Position numbers and translations under genes: made by a program. The notes under the pieces were generated by a model. The model was not told the DNA's origin, searched no databases, and worked only from the letters and a program-made list of their open reading frames with translations. Positions 20,685 through 29,181 of a stretch of 64,000 bases of DNA are shown here, one piece after another (within the stretch, counting starts at the first letter, position 1; every line of letters starts with the position of its first letter). Origin of the DNA: a virus (lineage: Duplodnaviria > Caudoviricetes); the IMG/VR virus record IMGVR_UViG_2837218921_000006, positions 21,395 to 85,394 of that record; one strand, written 5' to 3'.

Positions 20685-21557
20685 TTATGCGGCGTTGTCG
20701 GGAGGAAGGTCGGGTATCGTGAACAGCATGATGTCCGTGTACCGGGCATTGTAGTTCATCGTCGCTTTAAACTCCCTCCTTTGACAACGGGCAAACGGGT
20801 CGCCGAGCGAGGGGTGGCGACCCATCCACTCGCACAGTTCGACAATGCACGATTTCTCGGAAGTAAAATAAATGAAGTTGTGTCCGGGCAGAACCGACAG
20901 CACATCGAGGTAATCGGCGAGTCGCCAATACATACGATAGGTTCCGACATCGGTGGAAAGGTATGGCGGATCAACAAGGAACACCACACCCGGAGTGTCT
21001 TTAAATCTCTCGAACAGTTCCCGGTAATCACAGGATTCTATCTCAAGACCGGCGAGATAATCCGGGCAGGGAGCATAGTCGCTCTTACGGACATTGTTAT
21101 ACAATACCTCGGAGCGCATATCTTCGATGCTCAGTTTATACTTCATAGAGAACATCAATGAAGACGAGAGCGTGATGAAGTCGAGATAACCGGACTCCTG
21201 TTCCTCCTGTTCGAGCAGTTTGAATATCTGCTCGCGAGACTCACCGGTGATAGGCTTGTGCCTGTCGAAACGGTCTGAGATAGGCCGTATAAGGGAGAGT
21301 AGCCGGTTGGTGCGCCCGATATTGTTGATGCGGTGTCGGTAGTTGTCGAAGTCGTTGTAGATCACCCTTGATTCCGGGTGGTAATATTTGGTGATGTGGG
21401 ACAGTAGGCCGGAGCCGCCGAACAGATCGACAAAGACCGTACCGGGTGGATACTGTTTGATTACTTCGATGAAATGCTTTGCAAACATTCGTTTTTGTCC
21501 TACGAATGGAAGCGGAGCGGAAAGGTATAATGTATGTGGATGATTGGATGTCGCCAT
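20685..21557 (-). CDS. DNA adenine methyltransferase (D12 class)
   Basis: PFVGQKR, DLFGGSG, DPPY. Confidence 0.9.
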   Translation of the reverse strand: MATSNHPHTLYLSAPLPFVGQKRMFAKHFIEVIKQYPPGTVFVDLFGGSGLLSHITKYYHPESRVIYNDFDNYRHRINNIGRTNRLLSLIRPISDRFDRHKPITGESREQIFKLLEQEEQESGYLDFITLSSSLMFSMKYKLSIEDMRSEVLYNNVRKSDYAPCPDYLAGLEIESCDYRELFERFKDTPGVVFLVDPPYLSTDVGTYRMYWRLADYLDVLSVLPGHNFIYFTSEKSCIVELCEWMGRHPSLGDPFARCQRREFKATMNYNARYTDIMLFTIPDLPPDNAA

Positions 21558-21839: not shown

Positions 21840-23376
21840 CACGGCTCTTTCATTTAACCTAAAATAAATAGCATATCTTCCCTTACCCGGTTCATTGAGA
21901 ATCGGGTAATTTTTCCATGTCTGTATATCAAAGAGTTATTCTGGTATCAAAATCTTATTTTTTTCACTTTTGACTTAAAAATCGAATCAGTCTGGTAAAG
22001 CTCATCGAGATATGTCTGATCAGTTCGGCTATGCCTTTATTCTTATCTGATTGTTTCTTGCGAAGTCCTTTCCATATTGAGAACACCGAGTAAACTATTC
22101 TTTGTATGGTATCGAGGTTTCTGGCGGCTCTCGTCGACTTGCGTTTTATATTGTCCTGCTGAAGATTGTAGTCCAGCCCCCAGTGCATACTTTCTATTGA
22201 CCAATGGTTGCGCACGAAGATTCCTGGCTTCGGAGTATGCGTAGGCATACTGCTGACGTACAGGCGTTTTTCTGAGGTGTGTACTCCTGTTGACTTTTTG
22301 ACTGTGGACGATTCATACTCTATGATGGTCATGTTTCCGCCCCATTTCTTCTTGTCTGCGATAATGTCCAGTCCGTCATATACGCGGTAGGTTCTCGTCT
22401 CTATCCTGCCGTGGGCCAGTTCGGGACCTTCGGTGTAAGAATATACCGGTGTGTGTTCCACTAGCCTGTCCTCAATGCCGTATCGCAATGACGGCTGGTT
22501 GGCTTTGAGTTCTATCAGAAAGTCTCCGCCTTTCTTTCTGATTTTCTCGACAATATCCTTCTGCATAGACATTGCGTCGGCTGTGACAATCTTTCCTGCG
22601 ACATCTATTTTATCAAGAAGTATCGGTATGGCCTTTATCTCGTTGCTCTTTTCCTGACAGGCTTCGGTGGCGATTGTTATGCCGGTGCTGAACGAATAGG
22701 CAGAGACGATATCCGGGCTTCGCCCGTTTTCCTGAACGGTGCCGCGCTCGGCTTTGCCGTCAATGCAGATTATTTCAATGATGCGGCTGGCGCAAGTAAG
22801 TCTTTCAAGGAATATGTCTGCGAACTGCTGCATCCTGTCGGCCATATCCATATCGTTGATGCCGTTCTCCACACGGCAAAGCGTGGCCTCAGATGGTACG
22901 CCGTTCCTTAACAGGCCCATTTTGTGTAATTTGTTGAGGTTGTATCTGCCGAACTCCAATATCTCGGCTCGTCCGATGCATCCGGCCATACGTCCGAGTA
23001 TCATCAGCATGATGATATCGTTGAGGCTGTGACGGAAATTGCCTTTGTCCAATCTACGGAAATCCGGCACGGATGAGGCAAACGCTCGAAGTTCTTCCAT
23101 GATACTGCGCCTTGTGTCAAATTTATTGTGTACTTTTGCGGTATGATCAGGCGCATAGGCGTCAGTCGAACAGACTTGGTCAAGTGGCTTCATTTTTTTT
23201 GGCGTAACTCTTTGATTATCACCTATAAAGTTACTAAAAATCTGCCACTTGGCCAAATTTTCATTGCACTTATTTTCTTGAAAATCAGAGGTTAAAGCCT
23301 CTCCACCCGTACTGCTCTCGCTATAAAATAACACATTTGTCGAGAATGAGACGAAATCTTAAATGAAAGAGCCGTG
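21840..23376 (-). mobile_element. ISAs1-family insertion sequence
   Basis: 18-bp IR CACGGCTCTTTCATTTAA; 9-bp TSD GTTCCCGAT (21831-21839, 23377-23385). Confidence 0.93.
21964..23192 (-). CDS. ISAs1 transposase
   Basis: IDGK, KSNEIKAIP, TADAM, HGRIETR, RNHWSIE motifs; start codon uncertain. Confidence 0.92.
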
Positions 23377-23589: not shown

Positions 23590-24075
23590 TCAGTTCACTC
23601 GGTAGAGTTCCAAGTCAATCGCATCCTTGGCATTCCAACCGTCGAGCAGCGTCTTCTGAACGAACTGCATTGCGCCGGTGTAGAAGGCTGTCAAGGTGTC
23701 AAGGGTCTCGAAGGTGACATATTCCGGATTGTCATCATCTCCGAGCTTGAAGGTTACGGGCAATGTCGCTCCGGCAGTCTGAACCGCGAGGTCGTAAGCG
23801 GCCTTATAGTTAAACTGATTTTCGGTGGAGAGCCACACCATTTTGCCATCGTATCGATAGCCGGAGAGAATTCGGGAATCGGTCTGAGAGTTTATCCAAC
23901 CGCTGATGATGGATTTGATTTCCTCCTCGGATGGCTTATGGTTGAATTCTTCCTCCATGTAAGAGGTGATGCCGGATTCATCGACGGACACGTCCCAACG
24001 GACACGCCATTTGTTTCTTACCGGGTTTGTACACTCAAGCAGAGCGACATCGGGATTGCCTTGGACTCGTTTCAT
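23590..24075 (-). CDS. DUF4376-like phage protein downstream of the RT
   Basis: VWLSTENQFNYKAAYDLAVQT..LPVTFKLG motif. Confidence 0.7.
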   Translation of the reverse strand: MKRVQGNPDVALLECTNPVRNKWRVRWDVSVDESGITSYMEEEFNHKPSEEEIKSIISGWINSQTDSRILSGYRYDGKMVWLSTENQFNYKAAYDLAVQTAGATLPVTFKLGDDDNPEYVTFETLDTLTAFYTGAMQFVQKTLLDGWNAKDAIDLELYRVN

Positions 24076-24077
24076 GT

Positions 24078-25382
24078 TTAAGTAAAGACGTATTTGGTTT
24101 TACCTTTGCCGAAGGTCTCCGCCTTGATGGTGGTCTCGAAAGGGAAACCGTCCGGCATTTCACTAACTTGTTGGAGGATGTTTTTCATCTCCTCCGAGTT
24201 GGTGAAGAACTTCTTCTGTTCACCGTTCTGCTCGATGGCGACAACGCAGCGGTCTTCACCCTGCGAGGTCTTGACACCCATCTCGAAGTCGCGGACTACG
24301 ATGGGAAGGTTCACCAGTTCCCGGATACTTACCACCGCTCCGGGGAATCGCTTCTTGCCGTCATCAGGCTTGTAAGCGACATTGAGGTCTTTGAATGATT
24401 TCATTTCTATGCCTGTTAATTTGTTAAAGAGATTATTACATTGCGCGTGCTTGGCCATTCCGTAGAACGAGGCAACAAGCACACGTCGTCTTTTACGACT
24501 TTTCACCTCGCCCATCTTCCGGGCGAACTTTTTCTTTATGCGCTTGCGGATGAGCGCATGGTCGGGATAGATGACGTATCCCAAAAAATCAATACCCTCG
24601 GTTACCGGGAAGACACGCTCGTTATATTTTATCTTGAGTCCGATGCATTCCACGCACTCGTGAATGATGTCCCGGATTCTCCACAGTTCCTCTTTGGTAG
24701 AGGCAAGAACGGCACCATCATCACAGTATCGATAATAGAAAGGCACTCCGAGACGGTCTTTAAGAATGTGATCGAGGTGAACCGACAGTAGCAGGTTGCA
24801 AAGTCCTTGGGAACTTCTCAAGCCTATACTCACCCCGGAAGGCATCATACGGATGAACCGCTCAAGTATCACAATCAATTTCTCATCCTTGAAGATGCGC
24901 CGGACGCAATTGATAATGGACTGCTGACTGACGCTCTCATAAAACTTTGAGATGTCGAACTTGTAGCAGAACCGGGTCTCATCCGGGTGTTCCCGGAGAT
25001 CACGCTCGATGTAAGCCTTGAGGTCGTGCATACCGCGACCTTTGATGCTTGCCGAAGTCGTGCGGATGAAGCGGCGTTTCAGATGCTCATCGACAACAGA
25101 CATCACAGCATGGACGGCGATGCGGTCTTTCATCGTGAGAACCTGTATGTGCCGTTCTTTGCCGCCCTCGATGATTGTGCGTTCCCTGTAACCACCGGCG
25201 ATGAAATAGCTGCCGTCGGCAATCTGAGCCGAGAGTTCCGCTATCACCTCCTCCCGGTGTGCCAATAGCCAACGACCCTGTCGGCTCCGCTTCCGGCTTG
25301 TGCCTCGCAGAACTTGGTCGAATGACTGTGCCATATTTGGATAAGCGACAATCTCCTCTATGATATGTCCTTCTCGACGCAT
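24078..25382 (-). CDS. DGR reverse transcriptase with ~108-aa C-terminal extension
   Basis: KDRIAVHA, KFDISKFY, IGLRSSQ (DGR-type GxxxSQ), YYRYCDD, IDFLGY; adjacent TR. Confidence 0.93.
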   Translation of the reverse strand: MRREGHIIEEIVAYPNMAQSFDQVLRGTSRKRSRQGRWLLAHREEVIAELSAQIADGSYFIAGGYRERTIIEGGKERHIQVLTMKDRIAVHAVMSVVDEHLKRRFIRTTSASIKGRGMHDLKAYIERDLREHPDETRFCYKFDISKFYESVSQQSIINCVRRIFKDEKLIVILERFIRMMPSGVSIGLRSSQGLCNLLLSVHLDHILKDRLGVPFYYRYCDDGAVLASTKEELWRIRDIIHECVECIGLKIKYNERVFPVTEGIDFLGYVIYPDHALIRKRIKKKFARKMGEVKSRKRRRVLVASFYGMAKHAQCNNLFNKLTGIEMKSFKDLNVAYKPDDGKKRFPGAVVSIRELVNLPIVVRDFEMGVKTSQGEDRCVVAIEQNGEQKKFFTNSEEMKNILQQVSEMPDGFPFETTIKAETFGKGKTKYVFT

Positions 25383-25589
25383 GGTGCGGAGCGTTTTAGA
25401 AATTTGTAACAACAGGCTCCTTGAGCCTTCCTTCTCTGAGTCCGGGTTCTTCGAGCTTTCGCCTACCAAACCCTACTCGTTCACTTGGTGTTCCGGCTTT
25501 CCGGCTTTCGCCGCTGTTGCCGAGGCTCATCCCTCTCGGCACCTCGGTGGGAACACGTTCCCGGTGATGTATGCCGATTGTTGGTTGTC

Positions 25590-25765: not shown

Positions 25766-25999
25766 TCAAATTATAAGCCAAAACACAGCGGCGATGGCAC
25801 CTCCGGCAACGGTAAGAATCCAATCGACCCAATCCCAATAGCAGCCGTGTAGCCTGTCTTTCAACTCAAGACATGACGCCGCCACTACCGAGGCGTATAT
25901 GGCCGGGATAGCACCAAGGGCAAACAGCCCTACGAGAAGACCGCCAATGAGGTGCTTGTAGCGGTTGGAGGTCTTGAGGAATAATAAAATCTTGTCCAT
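25766..25999 (-). CDS. Small membrane protein
   Basis: MDKILLFLKTSNRYKHL...; hydrophobic helices. Confidence 0.7.
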   Translation of the reverse strand: MDKILLFLKTSNRYKHLIGGLLVGLFALGAIPAIYASVVAASCLELKDRLHGCYWDWVDWILTVAGGAIAAVFWLII

Positions 26000-26106
26000 A
26001 AACTTTTGTATGTCAGAAATTGTTTGTATTTTTGCATTCAAGAATCGCACTGTGTGTGGGCTAAACTTGCGTAAAGCATAAGGGGTCGCCACAGTCGGTT
26101 CTTTTT

Positions 26107-27408
26107 TTATTGTATGGCATCTGTTATCGAATACAGGAATCGGTCATGTCTGATTTTGCCGGTACGCGATATGATGTCGGTCTCTCCGACATTGAGATAG
26201 ACCTTCCTGCCGTGCAGTTCAGCCTCATAGTAGTAGAATCTCTCGATGCGGTCGCGGCGTGGTTTTGATTTCGCCACTTTTTTTATGAATTTCGCTCCGG
26301 CCAAAAGAGAATCAAGCGAGGCGAGATCATCTTTAGTCAGTACGGAACTTCTCCCGAAAGTATCGGCATATAAATGCTTGTTCCCATATTTGGAGAATCC
26401 GACATTCATAGGATGGCCGTTGCCGTTGACAGAAATTTTCTTTGTAAGGAGCGGTTCCATCTCACGCATATAATGCTTTTTGACAACGGCACTTTCGGAT
26501 TTTGAAAGGTCGTTGTAACACTCATTTATAATGGCACACGCCTCGCACAGACTGTTCATCGGCCTAAATGCGAATTTCCGTTTGTTTATATCGCAGTCCC
26601 GGCAGCGGCGTATAGTGTATGGATTGTAGTCCGGCACCGTCTTTTGCTCAAGTCCGGGATTGAATCGGAATATTCCTTTGCTGTCGCGTTGCAGAGCCTC
26701 GTCGCCAAGCCTCATCGCCTCCGCGTGGGATGTCGCCGGATACTTTGACTTGCGAACCTGTACGACAGTGCATCGGCAGTTCCATCCATTCGGAGGATAG
26801 AACTCCGCCCAAAACGGGTCAGACGGAGGCAGGGTCACACCATCGAGGGCGGCGTGTTCCGGGCGAACCTTATCATCCTTTTGAGTTCGGTATTGGAGAT
26901 TGTATCGGTCTCCATCCTGCATGAATCCTTCCCATTTAGCAGCCATTTCTGCCGAAGCGGTGACAAAGTTATACTCAGCCCGGAGGTAGTTTGCATTATA
27001 GGTTTGGTCGATGCTTCGAACATCGTTCAAAAAGCGTTCAAACGATTTTCGTTCGCCGTTCTCATCTACAAGTGAGGGGAAAGCCTCGTTGAGTTCGTGG
27101 AATGTTTTAATGCCAGAGAAAATAAAGTCCGAGCGGTGGAGCCTTTTGCGCATGGCATCGGACATCTTGACTTGCTCGAATGACGAGTCAAGGGCAGACG
27201 CATGGCTCTTGATGAATTCCCGGACTTGCGGAGTGGATAGAATATCGATGGAGAGCTGCGCACCTTCAGTTTTATACACAGCCTTCATCATTCCGTTGAA
27301 CAGAACGGAGAGCTGCTTGCGTATTTCGTCCTCACGCTCTTTGCGCCCGGCCATGAACACCTCCGGCATATCCTTGAGCAGACGGGCATAGCGTTCATGC
27401 AGCCCCAC
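26107..27408 (-). CDS. MuF/gp30-type head morphogenesis protein with C-terminal extension (possible RNase toxin domain)
   Basis: VRPEHAALDG, FYPPNGWNCRC; extra ~120-aa tail GFSKYGNKHL..FYYYE..FLYSI; only a GTG start inside a hairpin. Confidence 0.85.
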   Translation of the reverse strand: MGLHERYARLLKDMPEVFMAGRKEREDEIRKQLSVLFNGMMKAVYKTEGAQLSIDILSTPQVREFIKSHASALDSSFEQVKMSDAMRKRLHRSDFIFSGIKTFHELNEAFPSLVDENGERKSFERFLNDVRSIDQTYNANYLRAEYNFVTASAEMAAKWEGFMQDGDRYNLQYRTQKDDKVRPEHAALDGVTLPPSDPFWAEFYPPNGWNCRCTVVQVRKSKYPATSHAEAMRLGDEALQRDSKGIFRFNPGLEQKTVPDYNPYTIRRCRDCDINKRKFAFRPMNSLCEACAIINECYNDLSKSESAVVKKHYMREMEPLLTKKISVNGNGHPMNVGFSKYGNKHLYADTFGRSSVLTKDDLASLDSLLAGAKFIKKVAKSKPRRDRIERFYYYEAELHGRKVYLNVGETDIISRTGKIRHDRFLYSITDAIQ

Positions 27409-27422
27409 ATAGTCAGTGGGGC

Positions 27423-28760
27423 TTAGTCGAAAAAAGGTCTGCCGTTCTTTTGCTTGCCCTTATCATCCGCCTTCGTGTCATCGCCATCTTCCCCATCACC
27501 TCCGGGTGGTATGATTGGTGCGGTCTCCCGACGGTCTCCCACAGGCATGCCGTATTTGTCGGCAAAGTATGAAGGGTCAACATCGAAATTGTTGAGAACC
27601 ATAGTCTCGTATGCAATCTGTTGTTCCGGGGTATAATCCACTGCATCGTCCCATTCAAAGCGCAAGCCTTTGAGGGGGAAACCGTGCTTGATCATCCGGG
27701 GAATAAGCTGATTGTTCACGATGTCGCGGAGCATATCGCGGTCGGACTCCACAAGGTTCTCGAAAACCTGCAAGTGTGTTTCTGACTGCGACAGTGAAGA
27801 ACCGTCCTCAATGGTCATGGTCTGGCCGATGGTCAGTTTCGACAGTTCCGAATTGGCACGGTCAATGCGCTTGTCATATACATTGAAGGCATCGCCTTTG
27901 CCGGATTCGACAAACTGAACTTCCGTCTCCATGCCGGTCACCATGCCGAGATTGCTTCCGGCTTCCTGTATCATCTGCTCAAGGCGTTTCCACTCCTTTG
28001 GGTCGCGTGTTGTTGTCTTTGCGACACGCATAGGCATACCGAATATTTCGGCAAAGGCATCCCAAAACGCGAGTGCGTTCTTTTTGGGTATTGTCTGTTG
28101 TGCCGCTTTGAGGAAGAGTCCGAGATCATCGGGTTGTCCGGCTTCTATCAACCAATCCGAATATGGCCTTTCGTGGTAGTCTATGCCCGAAGTCCAGTCA
28201 TCCCCTACATTTTGGACACAGCGGTGATACTCCGAGATAACGTGCTTGCGAGGTATAAGCCGGACACCGTCATAAGACAGGCACCCGTCCCCGTCCTGCG
28301 TGAGCTCTCCGAGTTCAATCAATGAGTGGCCGAACCACAACGAATCGTGGCACAGGCGCAGAAGCTGTTTGAACCAGGATTGATCGAAATAATGCATGGC
28401 AGACTCATCCTCGTCGCCGGATTCATTGACGAGCTTAAACGAGCGTGACATTACGAACCCTCGCCGCTGCTCGATACAGCCGGAGAGGTGGAGGTCAACG
28501 GCAACGTCCCTGTAAATGTCATAAAGACGCTGCCGGTTAGGGTTGTCAACATTTATTGCGAGCTGCCATGCCGCCCTCCAATCCGCTATGTCCTTTCGCG
28601 TCAGTGCATCGGTAGTCCGATGTATGTCCATGACGATGCTCTGAAACTTTGCCCGGTCTTTCGGCTTGGCAAGATTCAGTTCTCCGTATGGGGTCTGGAG
28701 TATCATGGGGTCGCTCTTTTTGGAGCGGAAGTTCTCAAGGAATTTGTCGAGTACGCCCAT
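27423..28760 (-). CDS. Portal protein (DUF935/Mu gp29-like)
   Basis: FAEIFGMP, SKLTIGQTMT..GSS.SQSETH. Confidence 0.88.
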   Translation of the reverse strand: MGVLDKFLENFRSKKSDPMILQTPYGELNLAKPKDRAKFQSIVMDIHRTTDALTRKDIADWRAAWQLAINVDNPNRQRLYDIYRDVAVDLHLSGCIEQRRGFVMSRSFKLVNESGDEDESAMHYFDQSWFKQLLRLCHDSLWFGHSLIELGELTQDGDGCLSYDGVRLIPRKHVISEYHRCVQNVGDDWTSGIDYHERPYSDWLIEAGQPDDLGLFLKAAQQTIPKKNALAFWDAFAEIFGMPMRVAKTTTRDPKEWKRLEQMIQEAGSNLGMVTGMETEVQFVESGKGDAFNVYDKRIDRANSELSKLTIGQTMTIEDGSSLSQSETHLQVFENLVESDRDMLRDIVNNQLIPRMIKHGFPLKGLRFEWDDAVDYTPEQQIAYETMVLNNFDVDPSYFADKYGMPVGDRRETAPIIPPGGDGEDGDDTKADDKGKQKNGRPFFD

Positions 28761-28764
28761 AGTA

Positions 28765-29181
28765 TTACCAATTATGACGGAGCCGTGGCTCCGAGTGAAA
28801 TATTGTGCCGTTCATGACGGGAGTGTGCTCTTCCTCAATCAGCGGCAAGTCCGGGATGATTTTGCCTGACTGAACACCCTCAAGCCATTCGATAGCCCGT
28901 TCATAACGCTCCTTGCGTATCTCGATACCCATCTTCTGAGGGAGTGAGGCAACAAGATGATAGAGGGCTATGTCGGCAGTCCGCATGACAATAAGCCTGT
29001 TCCGGGCATCCCCTTCGGCTGAAAAAATCGCCTCGCAATCATAGACAGGACGCAGATACCCGGAGATTTCCTCGATTGCCTCAAGTTCCGCGTTGGCGCG
29101 GTTTTCCTCAGAGGCACGTGAGATAACCTTGAGCGCATCTTCGCCTATGACCACGGCGTAGTCGGTGTCGGTGATAAACAT
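28765..29181 (-). CDS. Mu gp36-like (DUF1320) head-tail connector
   Basis: DIALYHL..RYERAIEWL. Confidence 0.8.
   Translation of the reverse strand: MFITDTDYAVVIGEDALKVISRASEENRANAELEAIEEISGYLRPVYDCEAIFSAEGDARNRLIVMRTADIALYHLVASLPQKMGIEIRKERYERAIEWLEGVQSGKIIPDLPLIEEEHTPVMNGTIFHSEPRLRHNW

Follow-up and report, generated by a model that had tools for sequence, protein, structure and literature searches.

A probable programmed −1 ribosomal frameshift conserved at the 3′ end of the Mu-type portal gene in phages of Bacteroidales

Introduction

How is a downstream gene expressed when its reading frame is offset by one base from that of the gene before it, runs open through the end of that gene and offers as its start a codon buried in an RNA hairpin? 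The question is raised by the junction of the portal and MuF genes on the minus strand of a 64,000-nucleotide (nt) stretch of DNA from a virus of the Caudoviricetes (IMG/VR record IMGVR_UViG_2837218921_000006, positions 21,395 to 85,394), referred to below as the window and numbered from its first letter. The portal is the unique vertex for entry and exit of phage DNA; among phage genes known to be frameshifted, tail chaperones are the textbook case and some capsid proteins are further examples. The evidence assembled here argues that the Mu-type portal gene of this Bacteroidales (Muribaculaceae-type) phage carries close to its 3′ end a conserved site of programmed −1 ribosomal frameshifting, a reading to which we assign a probability of roughly 0.88. 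Comparison of related junctions establishes where the shift takes place, what structure the RNA forms and that the −1 frame is translated, and it also supplies the canonical elements of −1 programmed ribosomal frameshifting (PRF), that is, an in-phase slippery heptamer, a downstream structure and a −1 frame under coding selection without a start of its own.

The portal-MuF junction of the window

The portal open reading frame (ORF; 27423-28760, minus strand, like every feature given below) encodes 445 amino acids (aa) and is of Mu type, matching phrog_113 (portal) and PF06074 (Portal_Mu; E 5e-73, 246.7 bits against a cut-off of 23.9, profile positions 1-336 of 336). Its C-terminal ~35 residues form a low-complexity, variable tail that finishes with PFFD, and the corresponding 3′ end of the gene reads CCT TTT TTC GAC TAA. 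Within it, in phase with the portal frame, lies the heptamer T TTT TTC (27435-27429), which has the slippery form X XXY YYZ. It is followed by a 5-nt spacer, GACTA (27428-27424), that coincides with the last sense codon plus the initial two bases of the portal stop TAA (27425-27423), and then by a predicted frameshift-stimulating hairpin (27401-27423) with a perfect 8-bp stem, a 7-nt loop and a folding energy of −15.3 kcal/mol. The 5′ arm of the stem, AGCCCCAC, occupies 27423-27416, the loop TGACTAT 27415-27409 and the 3′ arm, GTGGGGCT, 27408-27401. Downstream structures that stimulate −1 PRF typically lie about 5-9 nt from the heptamer.

Portal and MuF do not form one uninterrupted ORF here; the TAA stands between them and MuF is in the −1 frame. 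The MuF ORF (26107-27408, stop included) encodes 433 aa counted from a GTG (27408-27406) that makes up the first 3 nt of the 3′ arm of the stem. It adjoins the portal gene and contains a Phage_Mu_F domain at residues 124-215 (26764-27039; PF04233, E 9e-16, 59 bits against a cut-off of 29.6). From the heptamer onward the −1 frame translates as FFRLSPTDYVGLHERY..., taking the bases of the portal stop into a Leu codon and a Ser/Gly codon. Seven of its codons, R L S P T D Y (27409-27429), would serve as a linker between the portal and the annotated MuF ORF and are coding only upon a shift. The layout given in a preliminary description of this DNA, with heptamer, 5-nt spacer and perfect 8-bp stem at the end of the portal gene, a −1 frame running into the MuF ORF and a GTG start inside the stem, is thus borne out by the minus-strand sequence and its ORFs. 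That description had also put the fusion at about 880 aa; portal residues 1-444, the 7 linker residues and the 433 residues of MuF give a computed length of 884 aa for a protein that is itself a prediction, and whose predicted trans-frame tryptic peptide is LSPTDYVGLHER.

The hairpin is the most stable of the 2631 23-nt segments of the 2.65-kb portal-MuF mRNA, the next unrelated segment reaching −10.0, and the 81-nt fold of the junction has a z-score of −3.76. The heptamer alone is unremarkable, with 26 copies of TTTTTTC in the window and 19.7 expected. Because it is so common there, the window by itself proves nothing and significance comes from conservation in relatives.

Conservation of the frame and the slippery site

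Eighty viral and 80 genomic loci whose portals are 63-96% identical to that of the window were fetched, from Muribaculaceae, Prevotella, Bacteroides and other Bacteroidales. Both genes are present in 155 entries, the window included, and 6 loci stop short of MuF. Every one of the 155 has MuF offset into the −1 frame with respect to its portal. In 154 of them T TTT TTC stands in phase no more than 70 nt from the portal stop, and in 154 the −1 frame is open back beyond that stop. The exception in both respects is L040, a viral contig in which a premature TAG (~3583) interrupts the portal ORF ~280 nt before an otherwise normal junction motif; it may be a pseudogene or an assembly error.

The codon preceding the heptamer ends in T in all 108 unique sequences, against a third-position T frequency of 0.18 in the portal ORFs, and this holds across ten codons for nine amino acids (CCT, TCT, CGT, AGT, GGT, AAT, CTT, GAT, CAT and GCT). 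The portal stop varies between TAA, TGA and TAG and always lies one codon past the heptamer, from which the stem keeps an invariant distance in 96 of 96 unique standard junctions. One locus, L090, carries a −1-frame TAA that directly abuts the heptamer, and the shift is therefore confined to 13 nt, comprising the heptamer, the next codon and the stop. The preliminary description had proposed an alignment of relatives for heptamer, spacing, relative frame and stem covariation; with the alignment made, all four hold (the stem is treated below).

The arrangement can also be recovered from the junction itself. A 35-nt degenerate motif of the junction, scanned against the viral contigs of IMG/VR, matched at least 108 contigs, some of them already in the comparison set. 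Among the 80 motif loci that were stored, 64 have at least 600 nt of flank on both sides, and in 63 of these the motif stands in phase at the end of a portal gene that is succeeded by MuF in the −1 frame, with portal identities down to 47%.

These regularities bear on the possibility that the locus is a decayed direct fusion, in which a frameshift mutation has split a formerly continuous gene, the fusion is absent and MuF is dispensable or truncated. Such an origin would fit with the single-ORF fusions found in relatives (see below) and with an IS-type (insertion sequence) transposase near by in the prophage region. Had the locus decayed, an identical offset of a single base at an identical position would not be expected in 154 of 155 loci, in all 81 loci of the Hankyphage clade and in at least 108 motif contigs, nor would both ORFs be expected to be intact and under purifying selection. 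We regard decay as scarcely credible.

Translation upstream of any MuF start codon

A second possibility is that there is no frameshift and that MuF initiates independently at the GTG in the stem, ribosomes that terminate at the TAA melting the stem and re-initiating, so that the hairpin couples the two genes. The in-frame GTG at codon 10 of the window (27408-27406, within the 3′ arm) is what this explanation needs, and there are parallels: codon 10 is also where the first start codon occurs in 34 of 103 unique 150-nt stretches, an ATG lies near the portal stop of Hankyphage p00 and phage Mu provides its F gene with a ribosome-binding site (RBS). In the alignment of 96 unique 66-nt junctions (A1), on the other hand, codon 10 is CTG, GAG, GCG, TCG, GCA or GTA in 63, and 55 have no ATG, GTG or TTG anywhere in −1-frame codons 3-18. 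In 61 of the 103 stretches no start codon comes before codon 17, and in 27 of these none comes before codon 41; in 8 others the first one precedes codon 10, being a TTG at a Leu position in 7.

Yet the −1-frame peptide FFRLSPxDYxGLHxRY is conserved in junctions that lack a start. R3, L4, P6, Y9, G11, L12, H13, R15 and Y16 are invariant across the 96 junctions, the 55 start-less ones included, while D8 is kept in 90 and replaced by E in 2. The codons behind these residues vary as expected of a coding sequence: the Leu that overlies the 0-frame stop is written CTG, CTA, TTA or TTG, Arg15 is CGC, CGT, CGG, CGA, AGG or AGA, Tyr and His each alternate between both of their codons, and outside the stem third positions are about twice as variable as first or second positions. 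By these comparative signs the −1 frame is translated from the heptamer, upstream of any start codon. Independent initiation leaves the residues upstream of the GTG unexplained, as it does the in-phase heptamer, the T-ending codon in 108 of 108 sequences and the in-frame insertions described below, and as a replacement for the frameshift it appears very improbable.

A covarying hairpin

The 8-bp stem is paired in 767 of the 768 cells of the 96-junction alignment. This pairing is maintained through change, since each of the two loop-proximal pairs occurs as four pair types (AU in 59, GC in 18, UA in 17 and GU in 2 junctions for one; CG in 59, GC in 27, AU in 7 and UG in 2 for the other) and a third pair changes from CG to UA in 4 rows. 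The covariation score was reached by none of 500 shuffles, and sliding the partner by 1-3 columns lowers pairing to 27-56%. When the stem types were placed on a FastTree phylogeny of 124 portal proteins from which the junction had been left out, at least 29 changes were required, whereas shuffled labels needed 67 on average and never fewer than 61; the compensatory changes therefore represent many separate events rather than the inheritance of a few. Covariation falls on the first and second positions of −1-frame codons 7 and 10, where the residue pairs alternate between T/V, S/L, S/E, D/S and A/A and preserve the helix. Where sequence has been gained between the stem arms, as in four variants (+21, +45, +78 and +81 nt), the added length is in each case a multiple of 3 and contains no stop.

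Two loci, L079 and L080, are identical over the 36 nt upstream of the stop and differ in both stem arms (CAG/CTG in one, CAC/GTG in the other) and in the loop. The difference suggests that recombination may have taken place exactly at the junction, with the joint acting as a module boundary.

Other structures were considered in the same region. The 81-nt minimum free energy fold (27370-27443) places a second small hairpin after the main stem, and it contains a long-range helix, GGCAGAC/GUCUGCU, which was dropped because its upstream arm varies freely in relatives. A terminator was likewise rejected: on the coding strand the run of T comes before the stem, and a consensus scan of 26000-29000 lists none at the junction. 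An Rfam scan of 26800-28000 at E values up to 1 returned nothing at the hairpin and one chance-level snoRNA match elsewhere. Inspection of the junction sequence, by eye only, revealed no downstream complement of the loop that could form a pseudoknot.

The structure is also pertinent to transcriptional slippage, by which RNA polymerase would add one U at the run of six T and so produce mRNA with both genes in one frame. Homopolymer runs can make RNA polymerase slip, and the marine Peternella-type clade, described in the next section, has runs of 9-10 A that are long enough for this. In the window clade the run amounts to just 6 T (7 in 4 unique sequences) and is held strictly in phase as X XXY YYZ, with a covarying hairpin 5-6 nt downstream, which is the layout of a ribosomal shift. 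Contigs from RNA libraries of two studies also cross the run without an inserted base. Those of libraries X15, X16 and X17 span the junction with no difference or indel and those of X18 cover it in pieces; such contigs are blind to rare variants and may derive from DNA. With DNA carry-over possible and rare slippage invisible, these contigs neither support nor weaken the frameshift reading. On the remaining evidence, slippage by the polymerase seems for the window clade a shade less probable even than independent initiation.

Related junctions in other clades

A DNA-level search for annotated phage records returned 3 unannotated fragments only, and annotated distant relatives came from a protein-level search. 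One of these is Hankyphage, a globally common gut phage whose clade has a portal 31% identical to that of the window. The junction of Hankyphage p00 (BK010646.1; L161, 3727-3775) reads CGT TTT TTC, followed by a 6-nt spacer and the hairpin GCCCCG-loop-CGGGGC, with the 0-frame stop 36 nt further on; its annotation gives 'portal' and 'Mu F-like' as separate genes with a 7-nt overlap. T TTT TTC, the 6-nt spacer and GCCCCG/CGGGGC recur in 81 of 81 loci of this clade. The six core pairs form in all 30 unique 69-nt junctions, a G-C pair being replaced by U-A in two rows. At the annotated start of MuF the −1-frame codon is ATG in 8, GTG in 12 and CTG in 10 of the unique rows.

Both clades place an Arg after FF in the −1 frame (CGA, CGC, CGG or CGT), whereas the 0-frame residue at the same position differs, being D in the window clade and G, A or V in the Hankyphage clade. 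Five loci combine a portal of the window clade with a junction of Hankyphage type; their MuF is only ~29% identical and their loop one codon shorter.

A further variant occurs in marine phages of Flavobacteriia. In Winogradskyella phage Peternella_1 and seven related contigs (Peternellavirus-type loci; L162, 3630-3760, and L245-L252), the portal gene ends in a run of 9-10 A with A AAA AAG or A AAA AAA. The ~100 nt after this run, annotated as intergenic, are open in the −1 frame, lack a start and encode a conserved IEAYY..P.C.H motif ahead of the annotated MuF. Judged by these features the junction is recoded, by ribosomal or by transcriptional slippage, and the latter is a serious alternative in this clade.

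Single-ORF portal-MuF fusions

A search for longer homologues returned 28 single-ORF proteins of 798-977 aa that start with a Mu portal domain, 26 of which carry PF04233 (MuF) and 2 PF18798 (LPD3) instead; their portal parts are 26-65% identical to the portal of the window. The joints of 15 were inspected. In P0003 and P0004 the domains are connected by Ala/Pro-rich or Pro/Thr-rich linkers, and P0005-P0009 retain a relic, ERFF[GA][YS]AP, at the joint. Portal-MuF fusions are also described in the available text on Microbacterium phages, for subclusters EA3, EA5 and EA8 and cluster EB (PMC7302621), and architectures combining portal, MuF and PBECR domains in that of Iyer 2017 (PMC5512222). The existence of single-ORF fusions in relatives indicates that a covalent portal-MuF polypeptide is functional in the lineage. 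The fusions resemble the product predicted for the window in having the same two domains in the same order in one polypeptide. They differ in being encoded by a single ORF, with MuF on every portal subunit, where the window has the domains in different frames and would give two products through recoding.

One fusion, P0015 (858 aa), has the ADP-ribosyltransferase families PF03496 and PF01129 in its precomputed Pfam list. To go by these domain matches, it is a portal-MuF-toxin polypeptide produced without recoding.

A model for expression of MuF

Collectively these results can be accommodated in the following model. Most ribosomes would read TTT TTC GAC and stop at the TAA, yielding the 445-aa portal. 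A fraction would pause with two tRNA-Phe on T TTT TTC, owing to the G+C-rich 8-bp hairpin 5 nt downstream, slip back by one base (tandem slippage on U UUU UUC) and continue with R-L-S-P-T-D-Y-V-G-L-H... into the MuF frame, giving a portal-MuF-LPD3 polypeptide of 884 aa. The shift would be ribosomal rather than transcriptional, and in most members of the clade MuF would be produced solely by shifting. Fused subunits would co-assemble with unfused ones into the dodecameric portal, and the efficiency of frameshifting would set the number of copies of MuF and its cargo inside the capsid at the DNA-exit vertex. The C-terminal crown of a portal faces the capsid interior, and for this reason the MuF part is placed inside the head. 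A fixed fraction of extended subunits, the resulting stoichiometry and the loading of an effector at the vertex, all part of the preliminary description, are what such a mechanism would imply.

The proposal can be widened. There is, we judge, an even chance that in a large group of Bacteroidota Mu-like phages, Hankyphage included, MuF exists only as a frameshift-made extension of a minority of portal subunits, that recoding efficiency and not binding affinity sets the number of cargo copies, and that the heptamer-hairpin joint is a fixed seam for the exchange of MuF and cargo. A seam of this kind would account both for the many switches of stem type and for the swapped C-termini described below. 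On this wider reading the 'muf' genes of these phages would have to be annotated anew as the 3′ part of a recoded portal gene, and theirs would be the first phage portal reported to be recoded.

Several observations weigh against this account, or against its reach. The arrangement is not a general rule for Mu-like phages: in phage Mu itself F lies in the +1 frame, with its RBS and a 20-nt overlap, and in Flavobacterium phage lotta8-2 MuF has a separate ATG, so the arrangement is clade-specific. The hard-wired fusions show that some lineages do without sub-stoichiometric MuF, which weakens the part of the model that concerns stoichiometry. Independent initiation of MuF may occur in those copies that have a start codon, namely the window, the 34 of 103 unique relatives and Hankyphage p00. 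In one of the 64 motif-selected loci, L300, the motif is not adjoined by a portal match. Kinship among the sampled sequences means that shuffle controls overstate their independence and that conservation partly reflects shared ancestry. Finally, the fusion is a product predicted from sequence comparison; no virion proteome of a relative was found, and the accessible text of the Hankyphage paper makes no mention of mass spectrometry or proteomics.

The cargo position of MuF and the neighbouring genes

The last ~135 residues of MuF are polymorphic in the family, and among 124 unique complete products ~31 align over at least 175 of the last 197 residues of the window protein, ~89 only over its first 37-131 residues and 4 not at all. 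Pfam was run on 112 pieces, comprising the last 190 aa of 107 unique products and five ~230-aa N-terminal inserts, and assigned 23 of them to LPD3 (best E 1e-17) and 15 to CdiA_C (best E 1e-6). By this pattern of alignment MuF has at its C-terminus a place for swappable cargo. Some products are longer than the usual ~440-500 aa: about 16 unique ones reach 630-690 aa through a ~195-aa in-frame insertion that closely follows the conserved N-terminal motif (L017, L029, L031, L032, L039 and similar, ~60-750 nt after the heptamer); the five inserts of this type that were scanned are assigned to no Pfam family in the tallies.

The copy in the window has at this position an LPD3-like domain (residues 311-402; 26203-26478), whose match is sub-threshold at 21.7 bits (20-22) against a cut-off of 27. 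No toxin family was matched in Pfam, and the label 'MuF-toxin' used in the preliminary description is not supported for this copy. LPD domains are listed as of unknown function in the available text of Iyer 2017 (PMC5512222).

The ORF that follows MuF (25766-26092, 108 aa), at the place of a cognate immunity gene in MuF polymorphic toxins, has no Pfam match. It is succeeded by genes for a reverse transcriptase (RVT_1, 24078-25469), a DUF4376 protein (23590-24075) and an IS-type DDE transposase (21964-23334). The presence of the reverse transcriptase points to a diversity-generating retroelement like that of Hankyphage, and the transposase may interrupt the phage. Also among the neighbouring genes are a DUF1804/terminase-like ORF, a 522-aa ORF with no Pfam match and Mu gp36, which fit a Mu-like head module.

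Significance

A classical −1 frameshift cassette has apparently not been reported before in this gene pair and role. The open full-text literature searched, with supplementary files and subscription journals outside the search, holds no description of portal-MuF recoding; the preliminary description, too, knew of no such account for portals. In the text available, the MuF toxin paper (PMC5576092) does not mention frameshifting and the PRFect paper does not mention the portal.

If the frameshift reading is correct, it would explain in genetic terms why MuF/gp7-type proteins occur at the portal in few copies, as has long been known. It would change the annotation of hundreds of gut-phage genomes, given that at least 108 IMG/VR contigs have the exact motif and that Hankyphage records show two separate genes. 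With a swappable cargo at the C-terminus of MuF, the amount of effector injected would be under the control of the frameshift as well. Bacteroidota ribosomes are commonly regarded as independent of Shine-Dalgarno pairing, and the junction would show how phages of these bacteria can express a start-less downstream gene. It would in addition provide a compact, strongly covarying −1 cassette for tests of recoding in Bacteroidales.

Comparison with known systems

The gene order of the window is that of the MuF polymorphic toxins, for which the muf gene is described, in the text available, as directly following the portal gene (Jamet 2017, PMC5576092). As in those systems, the C-terminal domain is swapped among close relatives, and domains known from toxins appear at this position, with CdiA_C-like domains in 15 of the 112 pieces and ADP-ribosyltransferase domains in the fusion P0015. 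The copy in the window differs in being LPD3-like, without known toxic activity, and in that no immunity gene was identified beside it.

SPP1 gp7 is likewise a protein of the MuF family found at the portal, inside the head and in low copy number. It is a separate product that binds the portal non-covalently, whereas in the window the link would be covalent and its frequency determined by the efficiency of the frameshift.

Frameshifts in head genes have precedents in the −1 frameshift of the T7 capsid gene, which yields 10A and 10B, and in the −1 frameshift reportedly found in the major head protein of Lactobacillus phage A2. These share with the junction of the window a U-rich slippery site read by tRNA-Phe and the outcome of a virion protein in two forms at a set ratio. 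What they append is a short or decorative tail on the major capsid protein; in the window the two partners are the portal and an internal head or ejection protein.

A further parallel is the tail assembly chaperone G/GT, whose −1 frameshift is said to occur in lambda and in most long-tailed phages. There too ribosomes shift by −1 at a conserved site close to where a structural gene ends, and a minor form with an extended C-terminus is made beside a major short one; there too the shift was recognised by conservation of the frame across divergent phages. The window pair belongs instead to the head module, leading from portal to MuF; its heptamer is accompanied by a strong covarying hairpin, and its predicted extension is a multidomain protein of ~440 aa that in other phages is a separate gene.

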